From: Escherichia phage BEK12B
Strand: one strand, 5' to 3'
Sequence record: MN158215
DNA length: 51,448 nt
The position numbers were made by a program, and so were the translations under genes. Positions 18,742 to 50,722 of this stretch are shown one piece after another; within the stretch, counting starts at the first letter, position 1; each line of letters begins with the position of its first letter. Below the pieces are notes generated by a model. The model saw only the letters and a list, made by a program, of their open reading frames with translations, searched no databases and was not told where the DNA came from.

Positions 18742-18765
18742 TTGGTTTGTCGATTCGTGCTATTT
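18742..18765 (-). promoter_or_regulatory. diverged copy of conserved element (AAATAGCACGAATCGACAAACC) followed by TATATAAT
   Basis: terminase stop TAG embedded in ATAGCAC; -10-like TATATAAT downstream in sense. Confidence 0.45.
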
Positions 18766-20328
18766 CTTGATTCCAGCGAGGCGGTACATTCTTCCAACCG
18801 GATCATCTGCCATGTTCATTTCAATGTTAACCGCATCAATCAATGTGTCAACAATATCATCGTGTGGCGCTGAATCATCATAAGCAAAAGCCGCAACCTC
18901 CGCAAGTATCTCAGCCAGCATAGGATGCGATTCTGGAAGTGCTACGCGTCCTGCGCGCATTACTGGCGCTGCGTCCATTGCACGAGTAACCTTGTCTTTA
19001 TCACGCTGAACGGGATTGATCTTGATCATGATTTTTTTCGCTGCACTCTGAATCAAACCAGTGCCAGACGATTTATCTTCAACATGAATCCTTCGCAATG
19101 TTCCGCATTCTTTATTGCGCTTCCAACACTGATTCACGAATGCAACAAAATTCGTCTCAAGGTCCGGTGCTTCCCATTTTCCGCGAACGCCATCAATGAA
19201 GTAAACGCGATCTTTATACATCCCCCAATAACAGATCACGGAGTAGTCGTTAAGCTCCCCTGTTTTCTGTGCGGTATCAACCGTGATAAATGTATATTCA
19301 AAGCGATCCGGTTTTGGTAGCGTGCATTTCTCGCTGCTGCCGTAATACTGAAACCACTCTGTTTTAAACACGTTACCGCCAAGCGCAACAGGCTGTTGCT
19401 GATACTGACTAGCGAACGTGTACGGATCAGCATTTCGAAGCGCAAGTAATTCATCCGCGCTTTCCTTAGCAGGCCAGAACGAATAATGAGCAACACCATC
19501 AATCATCACTGGCTTACTGGACAAAACATCGCGATCAAACTCAGGCTTTAACCAATCAGGAAGCGTTTCGCGATATTCCTTAGTAACGAGCGCCGGAATA
19601 CTAACCACCTTAAACTTGATGCCGCCCATGCCGCCGTTTGTCATGAACCATGTTGAATCATTGACGTGTAGGCGTTGCTGAACCATCACAATTGGCGTGG
19701 TGTCCTTCATTCTACGCGATCGAACCGTGTTCTTTAGGCGCATGTGTCCGGCTTCGCGCTTTGTTTTTGATAGTTGATCATCAGGCTTATCTGGGTCGTC
19801 AAGAACCAGCATACCAGTAAAACCATCATCCATGTAACCGCCACGCAAACCAGTTACCTGACCACCAATAGATCGCGAATTTAGTTGCAACCAGACCTTT
19901 CCATCTCCATTAAGTACAGCTATATCTTTCGCGCTTGCTTTTGCCATCTTGCAAGGCCATAGCTCTTGCCATTCTGGAGAACCGATAATCTCCCTTACTC
20001 TAATGCTGTTTTGCTGCACAAGGCCATCACTAAACGAAAGGTTTAGATTTCGCACCTTCTTGCTTTTCAGCATTGCGTAAACTGGCATGTGGATCGAGAA
20101 TATTTCCGTTTTTGACGAACCAGGAGCAACGTTGAAAATCACGTTCTGCTCCTTGCCACTAATCACATCTTCAAGGTATCGGCATATATATGATAAATGC
20201 CAATTACCTAAAAACTTTTGCCCCTGTAGCAAGTTAAACCAAATGCGGATCATTTTTTCGAATGAGTGAGCGCTCATTTCTTTAATGGCGCGTTTCTGCG
20301 CCGCTGTTAAGTCTTCCCAAATCAGCAT
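18760..20328 (-). CDS. terminase large subunit
   Basis: 522 aa; ATPase-like N-terminus (VLDDPDKPDD Walker B-like) and nuclease-like C-terminus; follows small subunit. Confidence 0.85.
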   Translation of the reverse strand: MLIWEDLTAAQKRAIKEMSAHSFEKMIRIWFNLLQGQKFLGNWHLSYICRYLEDVISGKEQNVIFNVAPGSSKTEIFSIHMPVYAMLKSKKVRNLNLSFSDGLVQQNSIRVREIIGSPEWQELWPCKMAKASAKDIAVLNGDGKVWLQLNSRSIGGQVTGLRGGYMDDGFTGMLVLDDPDKPDDQLSKTKREAGHMRLKNTVRSRRMKDTTPIVMVQQRLHVNDSTWFMTNGGMGGIKFKVVSIPALVTKEYRETLPDWLKPEFDRDVLSSKPVMIDGVAHYSFWPAKESADELLALRNADPYTFASQYQQQPVALGGNVFKTEWFQYYGSSEKCTLPKPDRFEYTFITVDTAQKTGELNDYSVICYWGMYKDRVYFIDGVRGKWEAPDLETNFVAFVNQCWKRNKECGTLRRIHVEDKSSGTGLIQSAAKKIMIKINPVQRDKDKVTRAMDAAPVMRAGRVALPESHPMLAEILAEVAAFAYDDSAPHDDIVDTLIDAVNIEMNMADDPVGRMYRLAGIKK

Positions 20329-20849
20329 TATATCTTCTCCAGAATGTCAATTACCGCCTCTTTGACCTCCTCTGCCGTTACAGCGTCAACGCTTGCGCTC
20401 GTGTTATTCTCAATGGTAACGGTAGCTGGCTTTTCAATGCCTATCTCTTTACCAATGAATCCGGCGTTAACAATATTGTTTGCTGCAAGCTGGAATTTTT
20501 GCTCGTAAACAACACCGTCGATAAAGTCCATAACATCGCTGAATCCTGGCTCGCGTCGCCATTTTTCAAGAACGGAAGCAGAAAGCCCAGCGAATAAGCG
20601 GAATCCATTTAAGGTGAACACGCGCGGCTTGTGAATCTTGCTTTCGTATACATCACCCTGAAAGGATGCCGTTTCCGCCGCCTGTATATGGTTTTCCTCG
20701 GCCCACGTAAAGTAACGGACAGCCAGATCAAATACCTGCTCCGGCGTGTACTTGTGCGCCTTTGTCATTTTTGCAATATCGCCATATTGCTTATTATATA
20801 GTTTTTTAAAATTGCAAGCCTTTACTGCTGGCTCAACGTTTTTAGCCAT
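20328..20849 (-). CDS. terminase small subunit (position-based)
   Basis: 173 aa ORF immediately upstream of large terminase, stop/start overlap. Confidence 0.5.
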   Translation of the reverse strand: MAKNVEPAVKACNFKKLYNKQYGDIAKMTKAHKYTPEQVFDLAVRYFTWAEENHIQAAETASFQGDVYESKIHKPRVFTLNGFRLFAGLSASVLEKWRREPGFSDVMDFIDGVVYEQKFQLAANNIVNAGFIGKEIGIEKPATVTIENNTSASVDAVTAEEVKEAVIDILEKI

Positions 20850-20900
20850 AATGCGCCCTCCTTATAACAAAGCCTCATTATAGACAAATTGCAGGCAATA

Positions 20901-20921
20901 AAAAACCCGCCAAATGGCGGG
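20901..20921 (-). terminator. intrinsic terminator separating early block from late operon
   Basis: minus sense cccgccatttggcggg followed by TTTTTTATT; TATAAT hexamer follows. Confidence 0.55.
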
Positions 20922-20928
20922 TAGTTGG

Positions 20929-21162
20929 TCAATACTTGTATTTTACTTTTTCATCTTCTTGATTCTTCATGTGCTGATGGATTTTGCTACCAATCGTCAG
21001 ATAGTGACCGCGCACATCCCATCGCTGCATCTTGTTATTCCATGTTGCGCTTGCAAACTTACCGTTCTTAGCAAGAAATTTGCAAATTTTTTCCGATGCG
21101 ACAAACAAAATAATTACAGCAAAAACAAAACCAATAATAAAAGCAGAAATTAAGTTTAACAT
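20929..21162 (-). CDS. small membrane protein
   Basis: 77 aa with N-terminal hydrophobic helix LISAFIIGFVFAVIILFVA. Confidence 0.4.
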   Translation of the reverse strand: MLNLISAFIIGFVFAVIILFVASEKICKFLAKNGKFASATWNNKMQRWDVRGHYLTIGSKIHQHMKNQEDEKVKYKY

Positions 21163-21344
21163 TATATTTTCCTCACTAAATTAACTGAAAACTGGTGCGT
21201 TTCTTGATTGGCTCCGGAGTAATCTTTTGCCAGTCTTACTGCCATATCGGAGCTACATGCCGTAACAATTGTTTCAAATTCTTGTTTACATGTCGCGCAG
21301 CTCCTTCCCATTTTTCGTATGGTAAGGATAACTTTCCACTTCAT
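21162..21344 (-). CDS. hypothetical protein
   Basis: 60 aa ORF in early small-gene array. Confidence 0.3.
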   Translation of the reverse strand: MKWKVILTIRKMGRSCATCKQEFETIVTACSSDMAVRLAKDYSGANQETHQFSVNLVRKI

Positions 21345-22746: not shown

Positions 22747-22802
22747 TTTTATTTCCTCTGTTTCGCTTCAATGAGGACACTTTAACAAATGCCCTCGCGG
22801 AA

Positions 22803-22824
22803 GTTTTAACAAAAAGTGCTATTA
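22803..22824 (-). promoter_or_regulatory. conserved element copy (TAATAGCACTTTTTGTTAAAAC)
   Basis: sense-oriented copy directly after TAA stop of ORF 22822..23109. Confidence 0.55.
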
Positions 22825-23685: not shown

Positions 23686-24132
23686 TTATTTTCCAGCATT
23701 TCGCGCAATCCCTTTGTACATTCGGTAAAAGTTACCACCATGCTTTTTGAACTTGATCGCGTTTCGTGCAATCCTGCGCATCCTGCGCGCATCGTATCGC
23801 GATCGCTGAGATGGTATCTTCGTTGTTTTGACATGACAGCCGCGATGATCGCTGATTCGCTGAAGCTCAATCAAAACTCCTTGAGTCGCCACTACGTAAT
23901 AATGCTCAAAGCCAAAACGGCGAGTTATGATATAGCCATTCTTGATGCGTGGTCGGCGAAAGTCTTTGCTACACCCGCGATAAATACTATCCACCGTAAC
24001 AACCTGACCCCTGCTAACGCCGCAATATTCATCTGCCCAGGTTACGCGAAATTTTGTTCCAACGCGAATGTCGTTTAACTCTACCATGATGATTTCCTCT
24101 CGTTGATTAGTGTTTGCATTATAGCGAGGCAT
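23686..24132 (-). CDS. hypothetical basic protein (gene model uncertain)
   Basis: 148 aa ORF overlapping alternative ORF 23571..23870 in another frame; cannot choose between them from sequence alone. Confidence 0.3.
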   Translation of the reverse strand: MPRYNANTNQREEIIMVELNDIRVGTKFRVTWADEYCGVSRGQVVTVDSIYRGCSKDFRRPRIKNGYIITRRFGFEHYYVVATQGVLIELQRISDHRGCHVKTTKIPSQRSRYDARRMRRIARNAIKFKKHGGNFYRMYKGIARNAGK

Positions 24133-24140
24133 TGCGCCCC

Positions 24141-24163
24141 GCTTTTAGCAATTCGTGCTATTT
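24141..24163 (-). promoter_or_regulatory. conserved element, GAATTG variant (AAATAGCACGAATTGCTAAAAGC) plus TATAAT
   Basis: kinase stop TAG embedded; TATAAT 22 nt downstream of TTGCTA in sense. Confidence 0.55.
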
Positions 24164-25388: not shown

Positions 25389-25442
25389 GATTTAATCCTC
25401 GTTTGTTGTTGATGGGCTTACTATACAGCAAGCCCGATGATC

Positions 25443-25466
25443 TGTTTTTTGCAATTCGTGCTATTT
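25443..25466 (-). promoter_or_regulatory. conserved element, GAATTG variant, plus TATAGT inside hairpin
   Basis: AAATAGCACGAATTGCAAAAAACA in sense; stop TAG of ORF 25461..25670 embedded. Confidence 0.5.
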
Positions 25467-26659: not shown

Positions 26660-26711
26660 CTTTTGTCTCCTTCGTTGAAAGTAGGGCCATTATACATGGC
26701 CCCACATTTGA

Positions 26712-26732
26712 GTTTTAACAATTCGTGCTATT
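26712..26732 (-). promoter_or_regulatory. conserved element, GAATTG variant (AATAGCACGAATTGTTAAAAC)
   Basis: sense-oriented copy downstream of ORF 26792..27682. Confidence 0.5.
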
Positions 26733-26791: not shown

Positions 26792-27682
26792 TCATACTTT
26801 GACCTTCCACTTAACCATAGTTCCGCGCTTGATGCTGATCTCACCTGCAACAGTCCGGTTTTTAGCTCCGCAGTAGTGAAGAAGGAGGATAACAACGTCA
26901 TCATGAATTTCGATCGTCTTTGGCTTAGCCGTTAATTCATACCAGGTGCCGTCATCAAGCTGAACCCCTTTTAACGTGGCGGCAACTGGCATGTCTTCAA
27001 TTGCTCCCTGCGTTACTATTTCTTGATAGGCAATTTCGCTCTTATCAATACGCCAGCTTCCAGGCGCTTTCATTTCAGCGGCTTCCTTGTGGATCTCCTC
27101 GCCAATGATTTTTTGAATTGACGTCTTCCCGCCGCCGAATGGTGTTTCCCCAAACAAGTGTTTTGTAATATCTTCCACGTAGTACACCTTATCTTTTTCG
27201 TTGTGCGGATTTAATTTGTTATGACCATCAACAAAAAAATCAACTTTAAAACCTGATTTCAGGCCATCACTATAAACGCCGTTGTCTGGTGACGTATAGC
27301 GAATCGTTGAATAATCAACAGTGCGGAATACGATCGGATACTTAATGTTATCCACGTTTAAGCACCACAATTTTTTGTAGTCGCAGGTTTTCATATCTAC
27401 CGTATGAATCTCTTCGCGTTCCGGCGAGCGCACTGGTAACACCTGGCCTTCATATGGTTTGTAGTGCAAACAAGTGTAGCCTGGCATTGCGTAACCGTAG
27501 TCTCTGAGTGAGTTGTAGTGTTTATTGTGCGCTTCAATGAAGTGTTCAATCTCCATTGTTGAAGCGTTTGTACTTCCGTCTTCGTTAAACTTAGTGCATG
27601 TCTTCTCGTCGGTAAACATGAAATGACCAATGTAGCGAGATTCGAAGGTGATCGGGAATTTAATGTCAGCAAGTTTTAACAT
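26792..27682 (-). CDS. hypothetical protein (296 aa)
   Basis: long ORF with good coding appearance; no motif confidently recognised. Confidence 0.5.
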   Translation of the reverse strand: MLKLADIKFPITFESRYIGHFMFTDEKTCTKFNEDGSTNASTMEIEHFIEAHNKHYNSLRDYGYAMPGYTCLHYKPYEGQVLPVRSPEREEIHTVDMKTCDYKKLWCLNVDNIKYPIVFRTVDYSTIRYTSPDNGVYSDGLKSGFKVDFFVDGHNKLNPHNEKDKVYYVEDITKHLFGETPFGGGKTSIQKIIGEEIHKEAAEMKAPGSWRIDKSEIAYQEIVTQGAIEDMPVAATLKGVQLDDGTWYELTAKPKTIEIHDDVVILLLHYCGAKNRTVAGEISIKRGTMVKWKVKV

Positions 27683-27760
27683 GGTGCTTTCTCCTGATTG
27701 GTTTTGTGGTCGACGCCGTGCCGCCCTATGTGATTTATTATGCCTGGTTATCGTTTTCGA

Positions 27761-27782
27761 GTTTTAACAAAAAGTGCTATTT
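27761..27782 (-). promoter_or_regulatory. conserved element copy plus CATAAT
   Basis: AAATAGCACTTTTTGTTAAAAC in sense with embedded TAG stop of ORF 27777..28034; CATAAT 18 nt downstream. Confidence 0.55.
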
Positions 27783-28034
27783 CCGGTCAGTGAAAGTAAC
27801 GCTAAAGCTATCCCTGTGATTTACTAGGATTCTGATAGCTTTCATCATATCCTCGGAAGATGCCGGATACGTTTTTTGCCACTCTCCAGAAGAAAGCACG
27901 GCATCGTGAATCATCAAGTCCCTAGCCGTGTCCAGTATTTTTTCCACATCCTCTTTCGTGTACTTCTTGCCACCAAGCGCACTAACAACTTGTTTTGCGG
28001 CTTTATCAATATCAATCTTATTCATCGTCGCCAA
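27777..28034 (-). CDS. hypothetical protein
   Basis: 85 aa ORF. Confidence 0.45.
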   Translation of the reverse strand: MATMNKIDIDKAAKQVVSALGGKKYTKEDVEKILDTARDLMIHDAVLSSGEWQKTYPASSEDMMKAIRILVNHRDSFSVTFTDRK

Positions 28035-28536
28035 CCTTCTTAATCATGCCATCAATAATTTCATGGAATCGCTCACCCATAATGAGCGCCCCAGCCAGCT
28101 TATCACCTTCAAGATCTGACACGCGAGGCATCACGCTAGCCAGGTGCTTAAGCGCTTTATTAACAGCCTTAGCAGTTCTCTCGCTTACAATGGCGTTAAT
28201 TTCATCGCCAGTCAGCACGCGAGGTTTGCTCTCTTTCTCTGCAAGTGAGAACACATAGCAGCATCCACCACTACCAGTTTTGCGCTTAATGCTTGTCACT
28301 CCGCGCTTTTTGATTTCCGGCACACGATTCATAATTCCGCGCATGTATGATGCTGTAATTTCGTGACCATCCTCGACGTTGGCGTGTATATACAGGATCG
28401 GCATTGACACTTCGTCACGTTCACCGCTGCCAATCTTCTGCGCAACCTCGCGCAGCATGTTACAGAACTCCTTGCGCGTCATGCGTGGCGCTTCGTCTTC
28501 GCTTTCGTCAATCATTTCAAGATCGTCGTTAATCAT
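28018..28536 (-). CDS. hypothetical protein, first gene of the early minus-strand block
   Basis: ORF 28018..28629; internal ATG at 28536 has RBS GGGAG at good spacing, so shorter start preferred. Confidence 0.45.
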   Translation of the reverse strand: MINDDLEMIDESEDEAPRMTRKEFCNMLREVAQKIGSGERDEVSMPILYIHANVEDGHEITASYMRGIMNRVPEIKKRGVTSIKRKTGSGGCCYVFSLAEKESKPRVLTGDEINAIVSERTAKAVNKALKHLASVMPRVSDLEGDKLAGALIMGERFHEIIDGMIKKVGDDE

Positions 28537-28737
28537 TGAATTTTCTCCCGTATTGGTTGCGCTTAGATGTGGCGCATTATGACCATGCAGCCTGGTGGTG
28601 TCAATATGTTTTCTCTGTTTTGGCTGCATTTTTTATCAAAATGCTGTTGCCTGATAACAAATGACACAGCTTAAGTCATTGTTTTAACTTGAAAATATTG
28701 GCTTGTTTAGCTGGTTGACGGAGGATTGCCACTCCCC

Positions 28738-28930
28738 CATACATATATACATACAAAATCACCACATATCACCATTGATTAAAAAACATACAATCACACA
28801 TACATATTCACAAAAACAATACCACCTACCAATATACCCATGAAACAAGGATAACAACAGATAACAGTTATAATTATATATATAACTAACTTATTGATTT
28901 TATGGGTATATATATATATTTATATTTGTT
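28738..28930 (+). repeat. G-poor A/C-rich module A
   Basis: ordered blocks atacatac / aaaatcaccaca / acagataaca / ttattgattttatgggtatatat shared with 50461..50640. Confidence 0.6.
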
Positions 28931-29194
28931 TTTTTTGTTATGTCAACGCGATTTCTGTTATCGCCAGTTGCGGAGGGCTATTTGGCATAACAACGGGAAC
29001 GAAAGAAACAGAATTGCTCGCCAGGATTGCCGGAAAGGATGCGAGAGGACCGTGTTTCTCTATCCCCTCCGCACAAAAAGTTAATCAACTGATTAAAATT
29101 GATCAAACTCAAAGTCTCACAATCCAGGTGATCGCGAATGAGTTATTCCTGTTATTCCTGATTAATGGAATAGATGGAATAATAACCAGTCGGC

Positions 29195-29216
29195 AAATAG
29201 CACTTTTTGTTAAAAC
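29195..29216 (+). promoter_or_regulatory. conserved element copy plus TACATT
   Basis: AAATAGCACTTTTTGTTAAAAC then -10-like TACATT 18 nt downstream, upstream of gene 29275. Confidence 0.55.
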
Positions 29217-29274
29217 TGAATCCGCCTGATCGGGTACATTACACACATCGAAACGAAACGCTCAGGAGATAGCA

Positions 29275-29547
29275 ATGAACATCAGCAAAACCACTTTCAA
29301 CTTCGCTAAGCGTCACGGTCTGGATCTGACTGTTGAGGATTTTGGCGACGTAATGCAGCTTTGCATTTGGGAAGCAGATAACGATTGCGAATGGCTTTGC
29401 TCTTATCGTATCAACTACGATTGCTTGACCTGGCACGGCAATATATATCTGCCGCAAGAAGTGAAAGAAGAATTGCCAGCGACCATCAACAACGAAGTGT
29501 TTTTGCGCCAGGTATTGAAGTTTATTGCTGAGGAGATCAAGAAATGA
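29275..29547 (+). CDS. hypothetical protein
   Basis: 90 aa, RBS AGGAGA, first gene after promoter element. Confidence 0.5.
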   Translation: MNISKTTFNFAKRHGLDLTVEDFGDVMQLCIWEADNDCEWLCSYRINYDCLTWHGNIYLPQEVKEELPATINNEVFLRQVLKFIAEEIKK

Positions 29548-29783
29548 TTAATGAGATGGATTTTGAACTTGCAGAGGCCCAGGTAAGGGCCAAAAAGATG
29601 GGGTTGCGGATCTTGACGCAAACAGTGGAGTTCCCGTCGATGCCGTTCGCATCGTTTCATAAAGTTACGGTATTCAGTAGCAAACTCGAGTTTAACGCGC
29701 TAATCCCTGTTGGTGATGATAAGCGCATGGCAAAATTTATTAACGAATCCTGTGATGTTCTGGATGCCGTTAAACATGGTTAA
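29544..29783 (+). CDS. hypothetical protein
   Basis: 79 aa, ATGA overlap with upstream gene. Confidence 0.5.
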   Translation: MINEMDFELAEAQVRAKKMGLRILTQTVEFPSMPFASFHKVTVFSSKLEFNALIPVGDDKRMAKFINESCDVLDAVKHG

Positions 29784-29784
29784 C

Positions 29785-30069
29785 AACAATGGAGAAATAG
29801 AGATGGCGCGAATCAATGCACCTATTCCAGTTAAGCGCAAAGCACGTTTGCTCAATAACGGGTGTTACGCCCTGCGGCCTGCGTTTAAGGATCGCACCTT
29901 TCCGGTTATCGTTAACGTGTCTCACGTAAGTCGTTGCGGAAACCTGGCATTCGTTAAAGGTGAAGATCTGTCGGCGCTTGGATTCTATGGCGGTGTTTAC
30001 GGCGAGCCGCTCGGATTCTGGCTTGTAGATCCGCTAACTGGAGAACGTGAAATCGAATTCCTGGACTAA
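29785..30069 (+). CDS. hypothetical protein
   Basis: start MARINAPIP preceded by GGAG RBS (ORF-track start 29710 is too far upstream). Confidence 0.5.
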   Translation, partial: NNGEIEMARINAPIPVKRKARLLNNGCYALRPAFKDRTFPVIVNVSHVSRCGNLAFVKGEDLSALGFYGGVYGEPLGFWLVDPLTGEREIEFLD

Positions 30070-30089
30070 ATAGCACTTTTTGTTAAAAC
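30068..30089 (+). promoter_or_regulatory. conserved element copy plus TATATT in loop of 8-bp inverted repeat
   Basis: AAATAGCACTTTTTGTTAAAAC; CGATGCGC...TATATT...GCGCATCG. Confidence 0.55.
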
Positions 30090-30146
30090 CGATGCGCCTC
30101 TGATTGGTATATTAAGCGCATCGACAACGAATGCGAGGATTTGAAA

Positions 30147-30344
30147 ATGGAAACACAGGTTGATGTTAAAGTGGTTAAGCGCGACAAATCTCACGAAAAA
30201 GGATTATTTAAGAAAGGCGTTGAAATCACCATTGATCTTGATGATATGGAGGCGTACCACTCAGGGCTGACTTGGAACGTGCGAAAATGTGAAAACGGCT
30301 TGTTCAAGTTGACTGGCTTTGAAACCTATATGGAGATCATCTAA
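30147..30344 (+). CDS. hypothetical protein
   Basis: ATG at 30147 after RBS GCGAGGA. Confidence 0.45.
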   Translation: METQVDVKVVKRDKSHEKGLFKKGVEITIDLDDMEAYHSGLTWNVRKCENGLFKLTGFETYMEII

Positions 30345-30622: not shown

Positions 30623-30796
30623 ATGAAGCTAATAATATTCCATAATTCCTGGATGATTGCTGTTTCTAATGATCATTATGGCGGAGACGGAAAGCGAGCA
30701 AAACGCCATAGCCATTTCAACTGATATCACGAATTGCTAAACAATATTTCTTAAACCTTGTATAGTTACCAAACCAAATATAATGAGGATCGCGCA

Positions 30797-31024
30797 ATGA
30801 AAGCTAAAGTAACTAACATCATGCACACTGTTGATGCACATCACCGCGTCGCTGTGAAAATTGATCAATCTTGTGGAATCAACCAGTTAACAATCACAAG
30901 CGGTAAAGGTGTGTTTGTTGTTGGCTCGCATCCTGGTAGTAAAATTCGCAAATATACTCGCGAAGAATTGATTAAACTTCTTGAAGAGAACAGCATGTTC
31001 ATTGAAAGCTGGAAGGCTGTCTGA
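30797..31024 (+). CDS. hypothetical protein
   Basis: start MKAKVTN after RBS GAGGAT. Confidence 0.45.
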   Translation: MKAKVTNIMHTVDAHHRVAVKIDQSCGINQLTITSGKGVFVVGSHPGSKIRKYTREELIKLLEENSMFIESWKAV

Positions 31025-31415: not shown

Positions 31416-32102
31416 ATGAAACAAAAAATCGCTTACTCAATGTTTGATGGATCTGGAATTATGTTGCTGGAATATGCGAAGGCTGGCTATCAATGCTATT
31501 GCTTCAACGCTGACGAAGGCAACCACGGAGAATATTTCATCAAGATGAAGCATGAAAATCTTCATTATGTGAATATGTGGATTGATGAAAATTTCATTGA
31601 AAGAATCAGTAAGATGGATATTCCAAAACCAGATATTGTATTTGGATTTCCAGACTGCACCATGTTTGCCCAATCAGGAAGTAAGCACTTGCGAAGCGAT
31701 GATGATATTCAGGTCGCGCTCAAAAATGCAATCATGGTTGAAACTGTCGGGAATCATTTCGGTGTTCCCTGGATGGCTGAGAATCCTGTAGGCCGACTAT
31801 CAACGCTATGGCGCAAGCCTGATTTTTATTTCAATCCGCGCGATTTTGGTAACTACCTGGACGAATCCGATGGATCTTTTCACCCCAAGATGCCGCTAAA
31901 GGATGGATACACAAAAAGGACTGCTATCTGGTGCGGCAACGGATTTACAGAACCCGAACGCAAGCCGTTATGCAATGATGAGGGCGTAATGTTCTTTTGG
32001 GGTTGGAAGTTTTTAGGCGGTAAGTCTGCCAGAACAAAGCAACTACGCTCACTCACTCCGCGAGGATTTGCTCGCGCCGTATTTGAGGCAAACTCAAAAT
32101 AG
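31416..32102 (+). CDS. DNA (cytosine-5)-methyltransferase-like protein
   Basis: FDGSGI (motif I-like), GFPDCTMFAQSGS (PC motif IV-like), ENP (ENV-like); short at 228 aa so assignment is tentative. Confidence 0.5.
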   Translation: MKQKIAYSMFDGSGIMLLEYAKAGYQCYCFNADEGNHGEYFIKMKHENLHYVNMWIDENFIERISKMDIPKPDIVFGFPDCTMFAQSGSKHLRSDDDIQVALKNAIMVETVGNHFGVPWMAENPVGRLSTLWRKPDFYFNPRDFGNYLDESDGSFHPKMPLKDGYTKRTAIWCGNGFTEPERKPLCNDEGVMFFWGWKFLGGKSARTKQLRSLTPRGFARAVFEANSK

Positions 32103-32118
32103 CACTTTTTGTTAAAAG
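32097..32118 (+). promoter_or_regulatory. conserved element copy plus hairpin and CATAAT
   Basis: AAATAGCACTTTTTGTTAAAAG with methylase stop TAG embedded; ccaggtgtaaaaacctgg hairpin then CATAAT. Confidence 0.55.
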
Positions 32119-32173
32119 CCAGGTGTAAAAACCTGGCATAATCACTTCACCGAAACGAAAGGAGAAATAAACG

Positions 32174-33039: not shown

Positions 33040-33247
33040 ATATCGCTATAAGGTGACTTATTCAGCAACAAAAACCTTCAAGCCTGGCGATATAGTCAGG
33101 CCCATCAAAAAAACGGCGGTAGGTTGGCTGATTGGATTCTCATATCACAAATCACTTTACTTTGATTTTGTTGATTCTGTAACCGCGCATTTCCATAGTG
33201 CAAAGGAACCAGAAAAAATCTTAGTTAGCATAGAGCGGATCAAATAG
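33026..33247 (+). CDS. hypothetical protein
   Basis: start at MIKTEYRYKV overlapping HNH stop. Confidence 0.4.
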   Translation: MIKTEYRYKVTYSATKTFKPGDIVRPIKKTAVGWLIGFSYHKSLYFDFVDSVTAHFHSAKEPEKILVSIERIK

Positions 33248-33263
33248 CATTTTTTGTTAAATG
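33242..33263 (+). promoter_or_regulatory. conserved element copy plus TATTAT
   Basis: AAATAGCATTTTTTGTTAAATG with embedded TAG stop; TATTAT 18 nt downstream. Confidence 0.5.
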
Positions 33264-33314
33264 CGGGTAGCATTGGTGCGGTATTATTGCCGCATCAAAA
33301 AGGAGTTATCACCA

Positions 33315-37746: not shown

Positions 37747-37748
37747 TT

Positions 37749-39233: not shown

Positions 39234-39437
39234 ATTCTAATGGGTAGTGACCATATGCAACGCGAAGTAGAATCATTGCAGCGCCCCAATAAAGCTGCAT
39301 ATTGTTTTTCGTTCCACCTTTTACCGCCTCGCGTGCGGTTTTTTGCGCCTGGTCAAATGCTTTCTTGCTGTATACTACCATTTTTATTTCCTCATGTTTG
39401 TTTCGTTGAAATAATTATGCCCGACACAAGGCCGGGC

Positions 39438-39459
39438 GTTTTAACAAAAAGTGCTATTA
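39438..39459 (-). promoter_or_regulatory. conserved element copy plus hairpin and CATAAT
   Basis: TAATAGCACTTTTTGTTAAAAC after TAA stop of 39457..39714; gcccg...cgggc hairpin then CATAAT. Confidence 0.55.
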
Positions 39460-39718: not shown

Positions 39719-40420
39719 TTAGCTCCGTTTCCGTGCGCGACGTTCGGTTACAGAAGGACAAATATCGCTGATCTTAACGTATCGCGTTTTCTGCTGCTCA
39801 CCTTCTTTAAGTTCGCGCATGATGAAAATAACGCTTCCTTTGTTGTTTCCCTGCACTGGTTTACCTGTAAGAGCCGAGGTAAACGCCAGTCGTCCGGTGC
39901 GGGAATATTCTGTTCCGTCCTCCTGGTAAACTTCGCCAGTGATCCAGATGATTTCCGCTGCTCGCTGTTGCGCTTCATAAAACCATCCTGTTGATGTGTC
40001 GCAAGGTAACAGAATGTCGATCTGGTTATTGTACTCCATTTGCTCAATCGCTTTCTTAACAAATGGAGTAATATTGCTGTACGGTGGATTCAGCCATATA
40101 TGCTTATTACTACCCCACAAACGCTTTAAGCAGTTTGTTTCCTTGCTATAGAACTTCTCGCAAACTGCGTTTTCCTGGCTTGCTGCCGCGTCGAGATCGT
40201 ATTCACCAAATTCTGATTCCATCCACTCCACAATCTCTTGAGGCGTGCTCCACATATCGCGCACAACGTCCGGCGTATTGCTGCCGTTATAGCGGTTGCC
40301 AGTCACTTTGAAATATTGATTTGGTTTAACAGCCTGGTAATGACCACCAGTAGCAAGAGCATTGCCAATGAATGTTTCGCGTTCTATTTGTTCAAATGTC
40401 ACTTCAGTTTCTTTGCTCAT
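39719..40420 (-). CDS. dam: DNA N6-adenine methyltransferase (phage Dam-like)
   Basis: NPPY catalytic motif (WLNPPYS) and upstream DLDAAAS AdoMet-like segment. Confidence 0.75.
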   Translation of the reverse strand: MSKETEVTFEQIERETFIGNALATGGHYQAVKPNQYFKVTGNRYNGSNTPDVVRDMWSTPQEIVEWMESEFGEYDLDAAASQENAVCEKFYSKETNCLKRLWGSNKHIWLNPPYSNITPFVKKAIEQMEYNNQIDILLPCDTSTGWFYEAQQRAAEIIWITGEVYQEDGTEYSRTGRLAFTSALTGKPVQGNNKGSVIFIMRELKEGEQQKTRYVKISDICPSVTERRARKRS

Positions 40421-40478
40421 TTCTTAATTACCTGTTGCTTGTTGAACTGTTGTTATTATGGCGAAATCCTTCGCGCCT

Positions 40479-40500
40479 GTTTTAACAAAAAGTGCTATTT
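40479..40500 (-). promoter_or_regulatory. conserved element copy plus CATAAT upstream of Dam gene
   Basis: AAATAGCACTTTTTGTTAAAAC with TAG stop of VRR-NUC gene embedded; hairpin and CATAAT downstream. Confidence 0.55.
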
Positions 40501-41378: not shown

Positions 41379-43405
41379 TAAGCAAACTCCCGTTTAGCAA
41401 TGTTGTCCTCTCCTTTCGCCGTCTTGCGATGCGTCACGCGTACTGGCGGCATGATGTGATGGGCGTATGCCATAATTTTACGCGCATTTCTATAGCTCGC
41501 CACCATACCAGCAATCTTGCGATCCGGTATGTGCTGCAATGCTATTTTTCTCCATATCGTCCGGCAAATGTTGCTTTCTGACTCAGGGAAAAATCTTTCG
41601 TATGCCTTGAATGTTTCCCCATGATAATCAAGCTCATAGCAAAAAACGATACCTTTCTGGTTTTTTGTCATGTCAACACGGAACGATTTAACACTCATGT
41701 AATCGTTTTTCGTGTAGTGCTTGCCGCTTAACTTCTCGTTAGGATCGACAAGAGAAATATCGCAACAACGGCATACTCTCGCCACTACGTCGTTTTTTGT
41801 TCCGCAACCGCGATGAATAATCTTTTTCGTTCTCGGATCTACCTGGTCTGTGCATTCGCGATACGTCCAGAAGTGCTCACACCGTTTTCCGCTTTCGTCT
41901 ACGTGCATACAACGGCGCGCGTAGTAGCTATTCAGCGTCTTGCATATCGGGCAAGTTTTCGGATCTTTCCCGTTGGTGAATCGCTTCTGGAATTGCGCTT
42001 GCTCAAGTATAGGATCGAAATATAAATCCCCTAGCTCGTCCATCGTTCCGGCGAAATCAAGAACAAGGTGATCGTTTTTCGTGAATCCTTGCTCAATATG
42101 CCATTTCTTAAGCAGTCGCATACCGCGCCCTAAAAGCTGAATCAGCAACGTTAGTGATCTGATTTTACGCAGAATGACGGAAGTATCCCATAACGGCTGG
42201 TTAACGCCAGTTGTTAGCGCCTGAACCTGGAAAATGTATTTTACCTTTCCCTCGAATGCTTCCCTTAACCACTCCTTACGCTGTTTCTCTCCCGTCTTGC
42301 CAGTGATGATTCTGTATGTCGTGCCTGTCGGAAGTGCGGCAGCGGCCTCTTTACAGTGACGCTCACCTGCGCAAGTTACCAGCACGCCGTTGCGGTCTTT
42401 GCAGATCTCATGCACGCGTGACATGATTTTTTGCGTCATGGTTGCATCATTATGGATCTTCTCCTCCATCTTGCGCAGAGTTTTCTGGTCAAAGTCTTCA
42501 ACGCCGTCCTCACTGGATGCCTCAAACTCTGAAAGGTCATAACCTAGATCGCCAACGTCGCCAAAATTGGTAGGCACAACCGAGCCAAACTTGATAAGGT
42601 AGTTGGTATCAATATTAGTAACCTGTTCGCGCCAGAATCCTTTTTGTTTTTTATCTTCTACCAGTATTGGAACTACGCCGCGAAACTCCGATCCAGTCAT
42701 ACCAAAGATGCGCAGTTCATGACCATATGCTTTCCTGCAACGTCGCATCATTTCCATGATAATGACAGTGTATTGTGTGCGGCCTGTTCCCTCCATTGGC
42801 AAGCCATCCTCACCAATCAGGAATTCTTCGCATTCGTTATCGCTCGCTACGTCATAATCTGGATTTTGTACTTTTTCGCCTTTCTTTGTCGTCATTTGTA
42901 AAAATGACTCGTCTTTCTCTATGGCGTCGGCAAGGTCTTCCCAATCCACCTGGTGACACTCGTCAATCCCGATAACGTGCGGAACATAGTCGCCAAGCGC
43001 TTTAAACAGTCCATTAACTACAGTTCCCTCAGAACCAACAACGATCGGAAAGTATGCGCTTTTTGTCTTCAGTCCTGCACAATAGATGGAGTTCGGCACG
43101 CCAAGATTTGTTATCTCTTCAGAATCTTGATCCACAATCTCAGCCTGGCGAGCAAGAACCATCATTTTTAAGCACATTTTCCGGCACTGGTGAGCAACCA
43201 TTGCAAACATCAATGTTTTGCCAGACGATACCGACGCTTTAACAAAGAATGGATGCTCATAATTTTTCATACGCTTTGCGATCTCAGCGTATGCAACGCA
43301 CTGGTAAGGGTAAGGCACAATATCGCCAACAGTGAATCGCTCCTGAATGGATTTAATTACCGCTTCACCAAGTGCTGATATTTGCTTTTCAATGTTTGGA
43401 ATCAT
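41378..43405 (-). CDS. superfamily 2 (DEAD/DEAH-like) helicase
   Basis: Walker A VSSGKTLMF, DEAH-like GIDECHQ; start at MIPNIEKQ after -10-like TATTAT and RBS AAAGG. Confidence 0.75.
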   Translation of the reverse strand: MIPNIEKQISALGEAVIKSIQERFTVGDIVPYPYQCVAYAEIAKRMKNYEHPFFVKASVSSGKTLMFAMVAHQCRKMCLKMMVLARQAEIVDQDSEEITNLGVPNSIYCAGLKTKSAYFPIVVGSEGTVVNGLFKALGDYVPHVIGIDECHQVDWEDLADAIEKDESFLQMTTKKGEKVQNPDYDVASDNECEEFLIGEDGLPMEGTGRTQYTVIIMEMMRRCRKAYGHELRIFGMTGSEFRGVVPILVEDKKQKGFWREQVTNIDTNYLIKFGSVVPTNFGDVGDLGYDLSEFEASSEDGVEDFDQKTLRKMEEKIHNDATMTQKIMSRVHEICKDRNGVLVTCAGERHCKEAAAALPTGTTYRIITGKTGEKQRKEWLREAFEGKVKYIFQVQALTTGVNQPLWDTSVILRKIRSLTLLIQLLGRGMRLLKKWHIEQGFTKNDHLVLDFAGTMDELGDLYFDPILEQAQFQKRFTNGKDPKTCPICKTLNSYYARRCMHVDESGKRCEHFWTYRECTDQVDPRTKKIIHRGCGTKNDVVARVCRCCDISLVDPNEKLSGKHYTKNDYMSVKSFRVDMTKNQKGIVFCYELDYHGETFKAYERFFPESESNICRTIWRKIALQHIPDRKIAGMVASYRNARKIMAYAHHIMPPVRVTHRKTAKGEDNIAKREFA

Positions 43406-43462
43406 TCTAAAACCTTTGAGTAATGCCATTTGGCGTGTATAATACACAATCATTAAATCATC

Positions 43463-43482
43463 GTTTAACAAAAAATGCTATT
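43463..43482 (-). promoter_or_regulatory. conserved element copy upstream of helicase gene
   Basis: AATAGCATTTTTTGTTAAACG then 18 nt then TATTAT within gtgtattatacac palindrome, then RBS and helicase ATG. Confidence 0.55.
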
Positions 43483-43494
43483 GGAGAATGAATA

Positions 43495-43968
43495 ATGAAA
43501 GAACAGCGAATCGCGGTATCAACTGGCAAGATTGACAAGCGCACAATTAATGGCAATAACGGAACCAGACGAGGCAAGGATAAGAAGAAACGCAAGCGCC
43601 CTACAGGATACTATGTTTTAAAAGATGAAGTGCGCGCCGGACTAAAAGCGCGACTTGACATCCTTATTGAGTATTACGGAAGTGTATCAGCAATGGCAAA
43701 ACGTCTTAACGTTAGCCAGCAAACTGTAAATCAGTGGCGTGTTCGCGGTATGATTTCAGCTGCTGGCGCTCAAAAGGTGCATAACGATTACAAAAAATAT
43801 GGATGTCAAGGCTATCGCGCATCATTCTGTCGTCCAGACCTGCGATTTGATTCCAATGGCAAACCGCTCACAAAGAGATGTGATAAGCGTGAAATGTTGC
43901 GAGTGGTAAGAATGTCAGATTATGAGCCTGGCGGATTCCTGTATAAACCTGAAAGCACTAATTGCTAA
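43495..43968 (+). CDS. HTH DNA-binding protein (candidate transcriptional regulator)
   Basis: segment SVSAMAKRLNVSQQTVNQWRVRG resembles helix-turn-helix; basic N-terminus; divergent from helicase promoter. Confidence 0.5.
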   Translation: MKEQRIAVSTGKIDKRTINGNNGTRRGKDKKKRKRPTGYYVLKDEVRAGLKARLDILIEYYGSVSAMAKRLNVSQQTVNQWRVRGMISAAGAQKVHNDYKKYGCQGYRASFCRPDLRFDSNGKPLTKRCDKREMLRVVRMSDYEPGGFLYKPESTNC

Positions 43969-43975
43969 AAACAAT

Positions 43976-44010
43976 GCCTGGCATGATGTTATCATCTGTC
44001 AGGCTTTTTT
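43976..44010 (+). terminator. terminator-like hairpin between HTH gene and primase
   Basis: gcctggcatgatgttatcatctgtcaggc followed by TTTTTTGTTT. Confidence 0.45.
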
Positions 44011-49136: not shown

Positions 49137-49217
49137 GTTTATTTCCTTACGCTTGTTGTTAACTTATGCGGTGAATTATAACACCGCATTTTTCATTTGT
49201 TTAGCTATTTGTGCTGT

Positions 49218-50276
49218 TTAAATAAGATATTGCTTAAACTGGCGTCGCACCCAATCAGGAGTATCAAGGCAAACCTCCGGCTCACCGTTTGAATACGAAG
49301 GCCAAACGTCATGATGCTGGCACATGGCAAACTGGTTAATCACGCTCATGTACTGAATGCGCCCAATCTTCAATTGCTCGTTGTTCATGCGGAAAGCCAA
49401 CGGCAAATAAGGCTCTTTCTTCTCTTGCGCTAACAGGCGCACAACTATAGGTCGCTTTTCTTCTGGATACGCTTTCCTGAATAAATCACATTGCAACGCC
49501 ATTTTAAGATAATAGCCGTGATTGTAAGCCAGGCGCATAAACTCAGCCGGATTCGCGCTCATTGTAGTTTTGTAGTCTGTGATCACAATGGCCTCTGGAT
49601 AAATAATATCGCGGCAAATCGGCTGACCTTTTTCATCGTAACCATCAATCAGCGTTGCGGTGACGTTCTTTGTTACGTCAACGTGATCGCATCGCACTTT
49701 GACTTTTACGCCGTTAATTTCACCGAACAACGATAATTCACGTTGTGCTGTCTTGCTATTCATGCATGCGTTATGTTCCGGTATTGATTCCAGAACCTGT
49801 CGCATTGCCACGCAAGCATCGTAATCTTTAGCTTCGATTAACTGAACCCCATCGGCCCTCGCCTGACTTTCTGCGATCATGTCGATTAACCACATGACGT
49901 TAAGGTCTTCTCCGCAGTCAACCAACATTTTTATAAGTTCAGGGTAAGTCTTTCCTGTTGTACCTTTCAGGCCAAATGATTTTAGCTTTGCAGCAAGCGC
50001 CGTTTGGCTGGTTATCAGATCCTTAAAGTCTTCTGGTGCTGGCGCACGGCGATAGGTTTTTTCGAAAAGCTCCTTGCTTTCAAAATTGGTATGCGACTGC
50101 GTACCGAAAACAAGTGCTTTGGTTTCCTGGCGAGGCTTGTACTTCCAGTACGCCGGGCAAGTGCTGTAAATCTCAGCCAGGCTGGAACCGCTGACGTATT
50201 CAGCCGTCCACGCGTTAGGATCATGATAAAGCTCATTGCTCATTTCTTCGCTAGTATAGGCGTTAAAATCACTCAT
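49218..50276 (-). CDS. PD-(D/E)XK recombination exonuclease (RecB/RecE-like)
   Basis: IITDYKTT and CDHVDV nuclease motifs; first gene of recombination operon; RBS GAGGAG. Confidence 0.65.
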   Translation of the reverse strand: MSDFNAYTSEEMSNELYHDPNAWTAEYVSGSSLAEIYSTCPAYWKYKPRQETKALVFGTQSHTNFESKELFEKTYRRAPAPEDFKDLITSQTALAAKLKSFGLKGTTGKTYPELIKMLVDCGEDLNVMWLIDMIAESQARADGVQLIEAKDYDACVAMRQVLESIPEHNACMNSKTAQRELSLFGEINGVKVKVRCDHVDVTKNVTATLIDGYDEKGQPICRDIIYPEAIVITDYKTTMSANPAEFMRLAYNHGYYLKMALQCDLFRKAYPEEKRPIVVRLLAQEKKEPYLPLAFRMNNEQLKIGRIQYMSVINQFAMCQHHDVWPSYSNGEPEVCLDTPDWVRRQFKQYLI

Positions 50277-50306
50277 CTTTAATGCTCCTCGTTGCTTTGT
50301 GTGTGC

Positions 50307-50334
50307 ATTGTAGCCATTTGGTTGATTTAGTCAA
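50307..50334 (-). promoter_or_regulatory. canonical sigma70-type promoter for recombination operon
   Basis: minus sense TTGACT - 16 nt - TACAAT, about 30 nt upstream of exonuclease start. Confidence 0.55.
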
Positions 50335-50460
50335 TAGTTGTTTTGTTTTTTCTGTTTTCTAAACGTTCTCAGATGGCAATAAAACAAATTTGACGCGTAA
50401 GTTAATGATTAATATGTGTTATTTTTCTTGTTCCCTTGTTCTATCAGATACGCCGGATTA

Positions 50461-50640
50461 TATACATACACATGAATGATGGCACATACAGATACTCAGA
50501 AAGAAAAATCACCACAAACAACCAAAACCACAAGAAACACAGATAACAAGAAAAAACAAATATACATACATAAATAAATAAACTATTGATTTTATATGTA
50601 TATATCTATTTTATTGATTATTTATTGTTCTTATGTTGGC
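50461..50640 (+). repeat. G-poor A/C-rich module B
   Basis: same ordered blocks as 28738..28930, with TTATTGATT repeated three times. Confidence 0.6.
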
Positions 50641-50701
50641 TAAGATTTGCGCTAAATTTACGCCGCCTTAAATCCGATAACACCGGAAAACAAAAAATAA
50701 C

Positions 50702-50722
50702 AAATAGCACTTTTTGCTAAAC
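50702..50722 (+). promoter_or_regulatory. conserved element copy plus TATAGT
   Basis: AAATAGCACTTTTTGCTAAAC then 18 nt then TATAGT, upstream of lipoprotein gene. Confidence 0.5.

Follow-up and report, generated by a model that had tools for sequence, protein, structure and literature searches.

A conserved 20-mer repeated along the genome of a T1-like coliphage is an optimal marbox, that is, a predicted binding site for the host proteins MarA, SoxS, and Rob. Its copies are probably sigma-70 promoters of the class II MarA/SoxS/Rob ("marbox") type that depend on a host activator. From sequence anatomy, statistics, family conservation, and the match to host sites and to micF, all of which we observe directly, we infer start sites, binding, and activation. 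The window, by which we mean the whole 51,448-nucleotide stretch analyzed, belongs to a Drexlerviridae (T1-like) coliphage and is 100% identical to phage BEC3 across the 8 kb compared. We count in it 16 promoter modules in sense orientation; of the remaining copies, one lacks a -10 at the right spacing, one is antisense, and one is only half an element.

The element is strongly overrepresented and is not itself new. The sequence AAATAGCAC occurs 10 times in the window against 0.58 expected, a count reached by 0 of 100 shuffles, and ATAGCAC occurs 15 times against 6.0 expected. All 14 copies listed in a first-pass annotation of this DNA were recovered at the same positions and on the same strands; to these we add 30724 (+), 43952 (+), 49217 (-), and the half copy at 4126 (-). 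The same element has been published as a "21-nt direct repeat" (aaATAGCACnnnTTGnTAAAA) of TLS, T1, Rtp, and Rogue1, whose function was left as an open question, with a stoperator, an enhancer site, or a UP element offered (PMC11447400). Absent from that paper are the extended -10 coupled to the repeat, its constant spacing of 18 nt, the hairpin, antisense copies, and the identification as a marbox, and the explanation as marbox promoters appears to be new. Because the marbox matches in both sequence and spacing, the question of the repeat's function becomes directly testable.

Phage copies score above the median host site. On a position weight matrix built from only 72 Salmonella MarA/SoxS/Rob/RamA ChIP-seq 15-mers (PMC10268841), they reach 12.2-17.8 bits, while genuine host sites have a median of 11.9 bits and a maximum of 17.8. 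The window holds 19 matches of at least 13 bits, compared with 2.8 in Markov-1 random sequence. The phage information profile follows the ChIP matrix (Pearson 0.76, Spearman 0.86), and the degeneracy pattern of the element is that of the host marbox. As at E. coli micF (ACAGCACTGAATGTCAAAAC, then 18 nt, then TAGAAT), a 20-bp asymmetric box in forward orientation, with GCAC and (Y)AAA, lies over the -35 position 18 nt from a sigma-70-type -10, with no recognizable -35. Rob contacts -47G and -45A at micF (PMC9178005), where the box is centered at -41.5 (PMC9638938), and class II promoters lack a -35 (PMC10268841). Unlike host class II promoters, the copies described here belong to a virulent phage, number about 16 per 51 kb, and all come near the motif optimum; most have an extended -10, the stop codon of the upstream gene within the box, and a covarying hairpin that surrounds the -10. 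The first-pass annotation had proposed a phage-encoded factor or modified polymerase as the reader. This is not the best fit, since the host marbox matches in sequence, degeneracy, orientation, and distance to the -10, and the phage ORFs yielded no AraC/XylS-type protein; promoters that depend on a host activator are thus the best reading.

Promoter anatomy is locked to the element across the family. We find 557 unique copies in 83 T1-like sequences. The 20-mer reads ATAGCAC-nnW-TTG-Y-TAAA-A/C; A0, T1, G3, C4, A5, C6, G12, T14, and A15-17 are invariant, and the degenerate positions are 6 (C/T), 9 (A/T only), and 13 (C/T). A -10-like hexamer is present in 83% of unique copies and lies exactly 18 nt past the element in 95% of those. 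In the window, where such a hexamer was said to follow every inspected copy by about 18 nt, 13 of 14 have one at 17-19 nt past the 22-mer, the exception being the 18742-18765 copy. Among the relatives' copies, the hexamer profile is T.70 A.87 T.72 A.67 (A/G) T.84, with G at -14 in 89% and TG at -15/-14 in 48%. The predicted start, at a fixed distance from the element, has C-1 in 59% and A+1 in 74%. The best -35 match at 16-18 nt spacing averages 2.36 of 6, in line with the reported lack of a TTGACA-like hexamer. A dedicated promoter class without a -35 is thus strongly supported in silico: TGnTATAAT and C-1/A+1 keep constant spacing from the element, while spacer conservation is near background. 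The recombination promoter indeed lacks the element, the recE-like gene having TTGACT-16 nt-TACAAT at 50334..50307 (-). The element is unchanged among relatives down to 53% portal identity, and the hosts of the portal's GenBank relatives are Escherichia, Klebsiella, Shigella, Salmonella, Citrobacter, Cronobacter, Enterobacter, Yersinia, and Pantoea, which fits a conserved host reader. Searches of the literature found no 5'-end mapping, binding, or genetic data on any T1-like phage.

If the copies are marbox promoters, each box would lie at about -50 to -31, with GCAC at -47..-44 and TAAA at -36..-33. The extended -10 TGnTATAAT would act 18 nt downstream without a -35, and transcription would start at the conserved A, 7 nt past the hexamer, giving a CA-rich unstructured leader and then a Shine-Dalgarno site. 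On the pattern of the solved complexes of Rob and SoxS with micF, a single monomer of a host MarA-family activator would occupy the box, substitute for the sigma region 4/-35 contact, and recruit RNA polymerase by touching both the alpha C-terminal domain and sigma region 4. Rob is the likeliest activator because it is constitutive; MarA, SoxS, and RamA are further candidates. It counts against the marbox reading that T1 grows very well in unstressed laboratory cultures, where MarA and SoxS are in short supply and Rob is mostly inactive. Since extended -10 promoters can function with no activator at all, the host factor may be only partly required. On the marbox reading, the non-structural genes, many of them small ORFs without assigned function, would be expressed from about 16 short units under a host regulator.

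Several leftward modules precede small ORFs. The module at 22772..22822 (-) has its marbox at 22822..22803 (ATAGCACTTTTTGTTAAAAC, 14.9 bits), TGT+TAAAGT at 22784..22779, and a predicted +1 at 22772; the upstream ORF ends in a TAA directly beside the box, and a 70-aa ORF starts at 22746. At 24111..24161 (-), a GAA-type marbox (24161..24142, 17.1 bits), at whose TAG the upstream ORF ends, is followed by TATAAT (24123..24118), a predicted +1 at 24111, and an ORF start at 24087. The module at 25413..25464 (-) combines a marbox at 25464..25445 (16.0 bits), a 19-nt spacer, TATAGT (25425..25420), and a predicted +1 near 25413, with a hairpin of -14.8 kcal/mol across the -10, and precedes an 87-aa ORF (start 25388). 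That at 26682..26731 (-), with marbox 26731..26712 (15.1 bits), a 17-nt spacer, TATAAT (26694..26689), and a predicted +1 near 26682, precedes a 76-aa ORF (start 26659); its -10 is enclosed by the hairpin GGGGCCAT/ATGGCCC (-18.8 kcal/mol). No hairpin is found at 27730..27780 (-), where marbox 27780..27761 (14.9 bits), CATAAT (27742..27737), and a predicted +1 at 27730 precede a 296-aa ORF (start 27682). Two CATAAT modules lie further along: 39407..39457 (-), with marbox 39457..39438, hexamer 39419..39414, and predicted +1 39407, precedes a 59-aa ORF (start 39381); 40448..40498 (-) has marbox 40498..40479, hexamer 40460..40455, and predicted +1 40448. The next same-strand ORF downstream of the latter is 39719-40420, and the ORF set searched around this module includes a Dam methyltransferase Pfam match.

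Rightward modules show the same arrangement. The module at 29197..29247 (+), with marbox 29197..29216, TACATT (29235..29240), and predicted +1 29247, heads a rightward block; no ORF of at least 50 aa ends at its box, and the downstream ORF starts at 29275. At 30070..30120 (+), marbox 30070..30089, TGG+TATATT (30108..30113), and predicted +1 30120 lie upstream of an ORF start at 30147, with the hairpin GATGCGC...GCGCATC enclosing the -10. The module at 30724..30774 (+) carries ATATCACGAATTGCTAAACA (12.2 bits), a 17-nt spacer, and TATAGT (30761..30766) ahead of an ORF start at 30797. At 32099..32149 (+), the upstream ORF ends at the TAG of marbox 32099..32118, and TGG+CATAAT (32137..32142) and predicted +1 32149 precede a 127-aa ORF (start 32174). 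A GCAT-variant marbox (33244..33263, 13.6 bits) with TATTAT (33282..33287) and predicted +1 33294 makes up the module at 33244..33294 (+), before a DUF3987 ATPase gene (start 33315). The window's top marbox score, 17.8 bits, belongs to 43952..44002 (+), where AAAGCACTAATTGCTAAAAA and TGT+TATCAT (43990..43995) lie upstream of a primase gene (start 44024); the -10 occupies the loop of a terminator-like hairpin, and a T-run comes next. The module at 50704..50754 (+), with marbox 50704..50723 (16.9 bits), a 17-nt spacer, and TATAGT (50741..50746), heads a rightward unit and precedes a Cor-like lipoprotein ORF (start 50772).

Two leftward modules occupy divergent regions. At 49167..49217 (-), ACAGCACAAATAGCTAAACA (16.4 bits), a 17-nt spacer, and TATAAT (49180..49175) lie between the recE-like gene and a 92-aa ORF (start 49136). 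The module at 43431..43481 (-), with marbox 43481..43462 (13.6 bits), a 17-nt spacer, and TATTAT (43444..43439), would serve a helicase gene from a region shared with the gene for a Cro-like regulator; the box lies just ahead of the start of that gene, which is on the opposite strand.

This arrangement bears on the main alternative, which we regard as possible though unlikely: that an activator encoded by the phage recognizes the box, whose marbox likeness is coincidence or mimicry. Candidates would be a dimeric helix-turn-helix protein or a sigma-appropriation pair like T4 MotA/AsiA. Within the box is a partial dyad, TAGCA-N5-TG(C/T)TA, centered near -42, whose 5-bp arms are 95-100% conserved except at position 13 and which a dimeric phage protein could read. 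The phage box is also tighter than host boxes at A2, T10, and T11. The phage encodes the Cro/YdaS-like helix-turn-helix regulator with a box in its own upstream region, a winged-helix protein without assigned function, and numerous small ORFs, also unassigned. Nevertheless, the flanks are strongly asymmetric (A0, C6, A16-18), variation is asymmetric (C or T at position 13, against 98% G at its dyad partner, G3), and box orientation relative to the -10 is strict. Box, degeneracies, and 18-nt gap all coincide with the host marbox and micF. Phage operator/regulator pairs usually diverge, whereas this box stays constant to the portal-identity limit given above. Like T4 middle promoters, the modules form a phage class with a good -10 and an activator box in place of a -35. 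The MotA box, however, is centered at -30 and read by the phage proteins MotA and AsiA, whereas the T1-like box is centered near -41 and fits the site of a host activator, and searches of the phage ORFs yielded no MotA, AsiA, or AraC domain.

Factor-independent extended -10 promoters, with the box as a UP-like A/T-rich contact for the alpha C-terminal domain, are improbable. Many copies do carry TGn and a near-consensus -10, and T- and A-tracts occur within the box. UP elements consist of A/T alone and are degenerate, in contrast to G3, C4, C6, and G12, which are 94-100% invariant; moreover, the box overlaps the -35 position rather than lying at about -60..-40, with nothing conserved upstream of -52. 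The UP element is nonetheless among the possibilities named for the TLS repeat (PMC11447400).

The hairpin is real, yet the marbox promoter model does not account for it. It begins flush with the box and encloses the -10, and within-copy complementarity gives -13.1 kcal/mol versus -7.9 in chimeric controls (p = 1.5e-96), which bears out the inverted repeats described at or beside the -10. PeSL (promoter-early stem-loop) cassettes of T4-type phages are likewise repeated intergenic promoter and stem-loop modules between small early ORFs; they hold ordinary sigma-70 early promoters with a -35 and differ in sequence. PeSL-like repeats could double as recombination points for gene shuffling. Stop codons are often embedded in the box, as the first-pass annotation stated: among 483 unique copies, the TAG of ATAGCAC serves as the stop codon of an upstream ORF in 43%, which we attribute to genome compaction, and an ORF ends within -30..+21 of the element in 82%. 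The hairpin, the stop codons, and an orientation bias like that of mycobacteriophage L5 stoperators (a comparison from PMC11447400), which are also many, short, asymmetric, and intergenic, might suggest processing or termination of read-through transcripts or a repressor-bound "stoperator" halting elongation. We consider this RNA-level or roadblock reading, part of which the first-pass annotation had raised, improbable as well, because copies at 29197+, 50704+, and 43481- head units without a co-directional ORF end, TGn, -10, and CA start are fixed to the box while hairpin arm ends vary, a T-run follows only 15 of 405 hairpins, Rfam gave no match, and the hairpin is barely weaker without an upstream ORF end (-11.4 vs. 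-13.3 kcal/mol). L5 stoperators are elongation-blocking repressor sites of a temperate phage, whereas the T1-like site is locked to a -10 and start in a virulent one.

Three copies depart from the marbox promoter pattern. The marbox-like copy at 18744..18763 (-; 13.8 bits) overlaps the stop codon of a 522-aa ORF (18760-20328) in the terminase large subunit position by synteny with T1; no -10 follows at 17-19 nt, and a terminator hairpin comes next, which makes a promoter of this class unlikely here. The claim that copies always follow local transcription holds for most of them, the exception being 14488..14507 (+; 13.6 bits), antisense in the late region at a position kept in relatives. This copy is embedded, reversed, in the late-strand promoter of the major capsid gene at 14485..14512 (-), which comprises TTGCAC (14512..14507), a 16-nt spacer, and TGC+TATCAT (14490..14485), with the ATG at 14441. 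The half element at 4107..4126 (-), ATAGCAC plus an A-rich stretch with a ribosome-binding site, lies directly 5' of the ATG of a 1192-aa ORF (526-4104) in the tail-fiber position by synteny with T1 and TLS. A terminator and a TATAAT lie upstream of this half element, which both T1 and TLS retain.

The repeats of BEK12B are probably class II marbox promoters that are activated by a host regulator of the MarA family. Each consists of a ~21-nt element starting with ATAGCAC (the box), followed at a fixed distance by a -10 hexamer. We infer the start sites, the binding, and the activation alike from the sequence. The repeat itself is already published. A 2024 re-annotation of the T1-like phage TLS described a 21-nt direct repeat, aaATAGCACnnnTTGnTAAAA, in 18 intergenic copies that are co-oriented with transcription, lie ~76 nt 5' of start codons, and fall into the subtypes TTT, GAA, and AAA (PMC11447400). 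The same repeat is common to T1, Rtp, and Rogue1, and only three conventional sigma-70 promoters were predicted in TLS (PMC11447400). Its authors suggested stoperators, enhancer sites, or UP elements, and left open what the repeat does (PMC11447400). The element in the window shares the consensus aaATAGCACnnnTTGnTAAAA and is likewise intergenic, oriented with transcription, and situated ~76 nt before start codons (e.g., box start at 22822, start codon at 22746). Its identity as a class II marbox promoter is not known from the literature that we searched, in which we found no link between T1-like phages and the marbox, Rob, MarA, or SoxS, and no mapped start sites in T1-like phages.

The window carries 16 sense-oriented modules, each comprising a box, a -10 hexamer, and a predicted +1. 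We took the census with a looser pattern together with an independent matrix. The first base of ATAGCAC lies at 22822, 24161, 25464, 26731, 27780, 39457, 40498, 43481, and 49217 on the minus strand, and at 29197, 30070, 30724, 32099, 33244, 43952, and 50704 on the plus strand. The sequence AAATAGCAC occurs 10 times in the window against an expectation of 0.58. All 14 copies that the first-pass annotation had listed were recovered at the same positions and on the same strands. Its proposal that the element always follows local transcription holds for the 16 modules and fails for an antisense copy at 14488 (plus strand), within the late region. The proposed -10-like hexamer ~18 nt beyond the element is likewise general, at 17-19 nt, except at the copy at 18763 (minus strand), which lacks a -10 at the right distance and has a terminator downstream. 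Comparison of ORFs with elements confirmed that stop codons fall within ATAGCAC, and the recE-like promoter does indeed lack the element. A half copy, AAATAGCACAAAAGGTGAAAAA, lies at 4107-4128 on the minus strand (first base 4126), immediately 5' of the ATG of a 1192-aa ORF at the tail-fibre position. It includes the ribosome-binding site of this ORF, has a terminator and a TATAAT upstream, and is conserved in T1 (25021, plus strand) and TLS (24908, plus strand). Rfam covariance models gave no match at the gathering threshold across the whole window.

The modules are conserved throughout the T1-like phages. Over the 8 kb from 27000 to 35000, the window matches Escherichia phages BEC3 and BEK7 with 100% identity and other Drexlerviridae with ~90%, and its gene order is that of T1 and TLS. 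The first-pass annotation had proposed looking for the element in related phages; the same modules are present in T1 and TLS, and the box is kept in 80 T1-like loci. We assembled these 80 loci around the portal gene (portal identity 53-99%), added the window, T1, and TLS, and aligned the resulting 643 copies (557 unique) on the element. Across the 557 unique copies, information content is near background upstream of the element and reaches 1.4-2.15 bits at A0, T1, A2, G3, C4, A5, C6, T10, T11, G12, T14, and A15-17. It is low at box positions 7-9 and over most of the 15 nt past the box, and rises again at T35/G36 (G in 88%) and in a hexamer at positions 38-43 (T.70 A.87 T.72 A.67 A/G T.84). C49/A50 are conserved (A in 74%); next come a stretch rich in CA and a ribosome-binding site rich in purines. 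Such conserved islands, set at fixed distances with a free spacer between them, indicate function rather than recent duplication.

Taking positions 38-43 as -12 to -7 places the box at -50 to -31, a TGn motif at -15 to -13, and a predicted start at C-1/A+1. An acceptable hexamer was found in 465 of the 557 copies, exactly 18 nt past the box in 443 of these. No recognisable -35 accompanies it, as had been claimed: the best TTGACA match at 16-18 nt spacing averages 2.36 of 6 positions among family copies. The extended -10 may leave the promoters partly independent of an activator. From about +1 to +20, the predicted leaders of the modules have a CA-rich motif in common, CAUCRAMMGAAAC, 5' of the Shine-Dalgarno site. 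Such a leader may be free of structure and enhance translation.

The box matches host MarA/SoxS/Rob sites in sequence and in its pattern of degeneracy. The phage element was first matched to the marbox consensus, AYnGCACnnWnnRYYAAAYn. The 72 Salmonella ChIP-seq sites listed in PMC10268841 then served to build a position weight matrix. On it, the true host sites have a median of 11.9 bits and reach 17.8 at most, and the phage copies score 12.2-17.8 bits. At ≥13 bits there are 19 matches in the window versus 2.8 in random sequence, and the phage element tops the list. The box has the 20-bp asymmetric architecture of a marbox: recognition element 1 (GCAC) and recognition element 2 (YAAA) are set about a helical turn from each other, with an A/T-rich segment between them. 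The family profile shows GCA(C/T), W, and R-Y-Y-AAA. It shares with host sites a C/T at the last base of GCAC, an exclusive A/T at the central W, and a C/T at the first Y. The information profiles of the phage element and the ChIP matrix are correlated (Pearson 0.76, Spearman 0.86).

The placement of the box is that of a class II promoter. In such promoters of the MarA/SoxS/Rob regulon, a forward box covers the -35 position and is centred near -41, and there is no -35 hexamer (PMC12052159, PMC10268841, PMC9638938); in Salmonella, the -35 match of class II promoters averages 1.9 (PMC10268841). The phage box also lies over the -35 position with its centre near -41, and is in forward orientation, with GCAC distal to the -10, in all 16 window modules and in the family copies. 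The class II paradigm, E. coli micF, reads ACAGCACTGAATGTCAAAAC, 18 nt, TAGAAT in the K-12 genome, so that its orientation and its 18-nt gap between box and -10 are identical to those of the phage modules. The micF box is centred at -41.5 (PMC9638938), and in the Rob-polymerase-micF structure Rob contacts the promoter at -47G and -45A (PMC9178005); the phage GCAC is predicted at -47 to -44. A strict composite pattern, searched in viral contigs, matched six stretches, which is too small a number for judging use by other phage families.

A host protein is the more fitting reader of the box. The box is constant across the 80 loci, although portal identity falls to 53%, and the GenBank relatives with the same portal all have Enterobacterales hosts. 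A constant box and exclusively Enterobacterales hosts fit a host reader more easily than a co-evolving phage regulator. Rob is constitutive and abundant (PMC9178005), and is for this reason the first candidate.

The first-pass annotation had favoured a phage-encoded factor or a modified polymerase, and we consider a phage-encoded reader unlikely. Its main support comes from a partial dyad, TAGCA-N5-TG(C/T)TA, with its centre near -42, and from A2, T10, and T11, which are conserved more strongly than in host sites; but the box flanks and the variation are asymmetric, and the orientation is strict. A MarA-like phage protein in particular was looked for and not found. Pfam finds no AraC/XylS-type domain (AraC/HTH_18) among 58 non-structural ORFs, and tblastn with MarA and SoxS queries gave no match in the window, T1, or TLS (best E 0.47). 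A sub-threshold Pfam match to Sigma70_r4_2 is the N-terminus of a 372-aa homologue of a repair exonuclease. The homologue of T1 gp70 (34895-35293, plus strand; PHROG 2794, YdbL in some records) adjoins the DUF3987 ATPase gene, and in T1 itself gp70 is annotated as an HTH protein. Its AlphaFold model (pLDDT 81) is a generic single winged helix with a helical tail and not a double HTH. It is possibly a DNA-binding protein. Searches of PDB sequences with the gp70 and gp73 homologues returned no matches.

A Cro/YdaS-like regulator gene (43495-43968) also has a box in its upstream region. At 43405-43495, this gene and a helicase gene diverge, and the palindrome GTGTATTATACAC contains their overlapping -10 hexamers. 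Just 5' of the start codon of the Cro-like regulator is the helicase marbox, a placement that suggests coupled regulation or autoregulation.

Other promoter classes do not account for the element. A T4-type middle promoter has its MotA box at -30, whereas the conserved TTGYTAAAA lies here at -40 to -32, and no MotA or AsiA domain was found among 58 ORFs. UP elements are degenerate, A/T-only sequences that precede a -35 and lie at about -60 to -40; the box has invariant G/C positions, spans -50 to -31, and is accompanied by no -35. The sigma-54 consensus is TGGCAC-N5-TTGC, with GG and GC 12 bp apart, whereas the element reads TAGCAC-N3-TTGC, so that the element lacks the first G of the GG and its spacing falls 2 bp short. 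The TTG of the box is no displaced -35, as it is 22 nt away from the -10.

A hairpin surrounds the -10. We folded the region from just past the box to about +8 and compared it with chimeras that join the 5' half of one copy to the 3' half of another. Native copies fold at -13.1 versus -7.9 kcal/mol for chimeras (p = 1.5e-96), and columns 26-31 show excess complementarity with columns 44-49. The helix begins within 3 nt of the box in about two-thirds of copies. Its end lies at one of three places: ahead of the hexamer, at -1, or around +4 to +8. Because it starts by the box, upstream of +1, transcripts from the predicted +1 would lack the 5' arm of the hairpin. One idea is that the stem, with GTTTTA on the other strand, terminates antisense transcription; this pattern occurs in 60% of copies versus 35% of chimeric and 16% of spacer-shuffled controls. 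The hairpin may also act at the level of DNA. A role as a 3'-end structure in upstream transcripts has weak support: elements at which no upstream ORF ends have a hairpin of nearly the same strength. An ordinary terminator is rejected, with a T-run after only 15 of 405 hairpins.

Sense copies are confined to one part of the portal-centred loci. All of them lie within the small-gene block, 4-10 kb upstream of the portal gene, and the structural region is essentially free of them. Antisense copies occur at two conserved spots. The first, before the major capsid gene, is occupied in 32 of 49 loci, and the window has it too. The second, between the major tail gene and the tape-measure chaperone, is occupied in 37 of 49 loci, in relatives only and not in the window; this marbox promoter has a good TGnTAnnAT, and an example is 18850 (minus strand) of T1 (locus L001). 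Transcription from it would yield RNA antisense to the major tail gene.

At the first spot, the reverse box is embedded in the major-capsid promoter. This sigma-70-type promoter lies at 14485-14512 on the minus (late) strand (TTGCAC, 16 nt, TGC-TATCAT; ATG at 14441). Read on the late strand, the box and its flanks yield this promoter as their reverse complement, 37 nt ahead of the capsid ATG region, and the reverse box (14488-14507, plus strand) lies inside the promoter spacer. Many relatives have TTGAC(G/C) as their -35. A protein bound to the reverse box would be placed to repress the capsid promoter, and could be the same factor that would activate the sense modules.

The marbox reading would supply a concrete mechanism for the T1-like repeats, and a wider interpretation can be offered tentatively. 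Drexlerviridae might wire their non-structural transcription to host MarA/SoxS/Rob through ~15-20 optimal class II marbox promoters per genome, with the reverse box as a host-factor brake on the late capsid promoter, the two together forming a timing switch of activator and repressor. The signals that activate Rob, MarA, or SoxS (bile salts, salicylate, and oxidative stress) would then influence phage development, and replicating phage DNA would titrate these regulators off host efflux and porin genes. If the marbox reading is correct, this would be an unusual virulent phage family, one that runs most of its promoters with a host stress-response activator in place of factors of its own. Phage growth would also be tied to the regulators of antibiotic efflux in enteric bacteria, a link that bears on phage-antibiotic combinations and on phage behaviour in the gut. 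With the module, annotators of hundreds of Drexlerviridae genomes would further have a simple means of calling promoters and start sites.

Two long non-coding AT/CA-rich regions of the window, 28630-29190 and 50290-50700, are paralogous (~200 nt, 74% column identity) and contain GATAACAA...CTTATTGATTTTAT..GTATATAT. In both cases the first rightward marbox promoter follows directly. Candidate roles are strong early promoters and signals for replication or packaging. The endolysin ORF (36337-36828) and the repair-exonuclease ORF (37749-38867) flank the interval 37103-37448, which holds 240 N and has the same ~60 nt (ACGTTGCAGCGTTCAAAAAATCTTTCAT...) on either side; this resembles an assembly gap at which a flank was duplicated.

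Among bacterial genomes, the exact 20-mer has four matches, all in non-enteric assemblies (including L084, L085, and L086) and none in an enteric chromosome. L086 is a 46.7-kb contig of a Nitratidesulfovibrio assembly (NZ_VSMK01000220.1) with six copies of the element in 8 kb, a density that makes a T1-like phage contig within the bacterial assembly likely. Twenty GenBank records named "Campylobacter phage" (MG0656xx) are 92-98% identical to the coliphage of the window and are probably mis-assigned T1-like contaminants.
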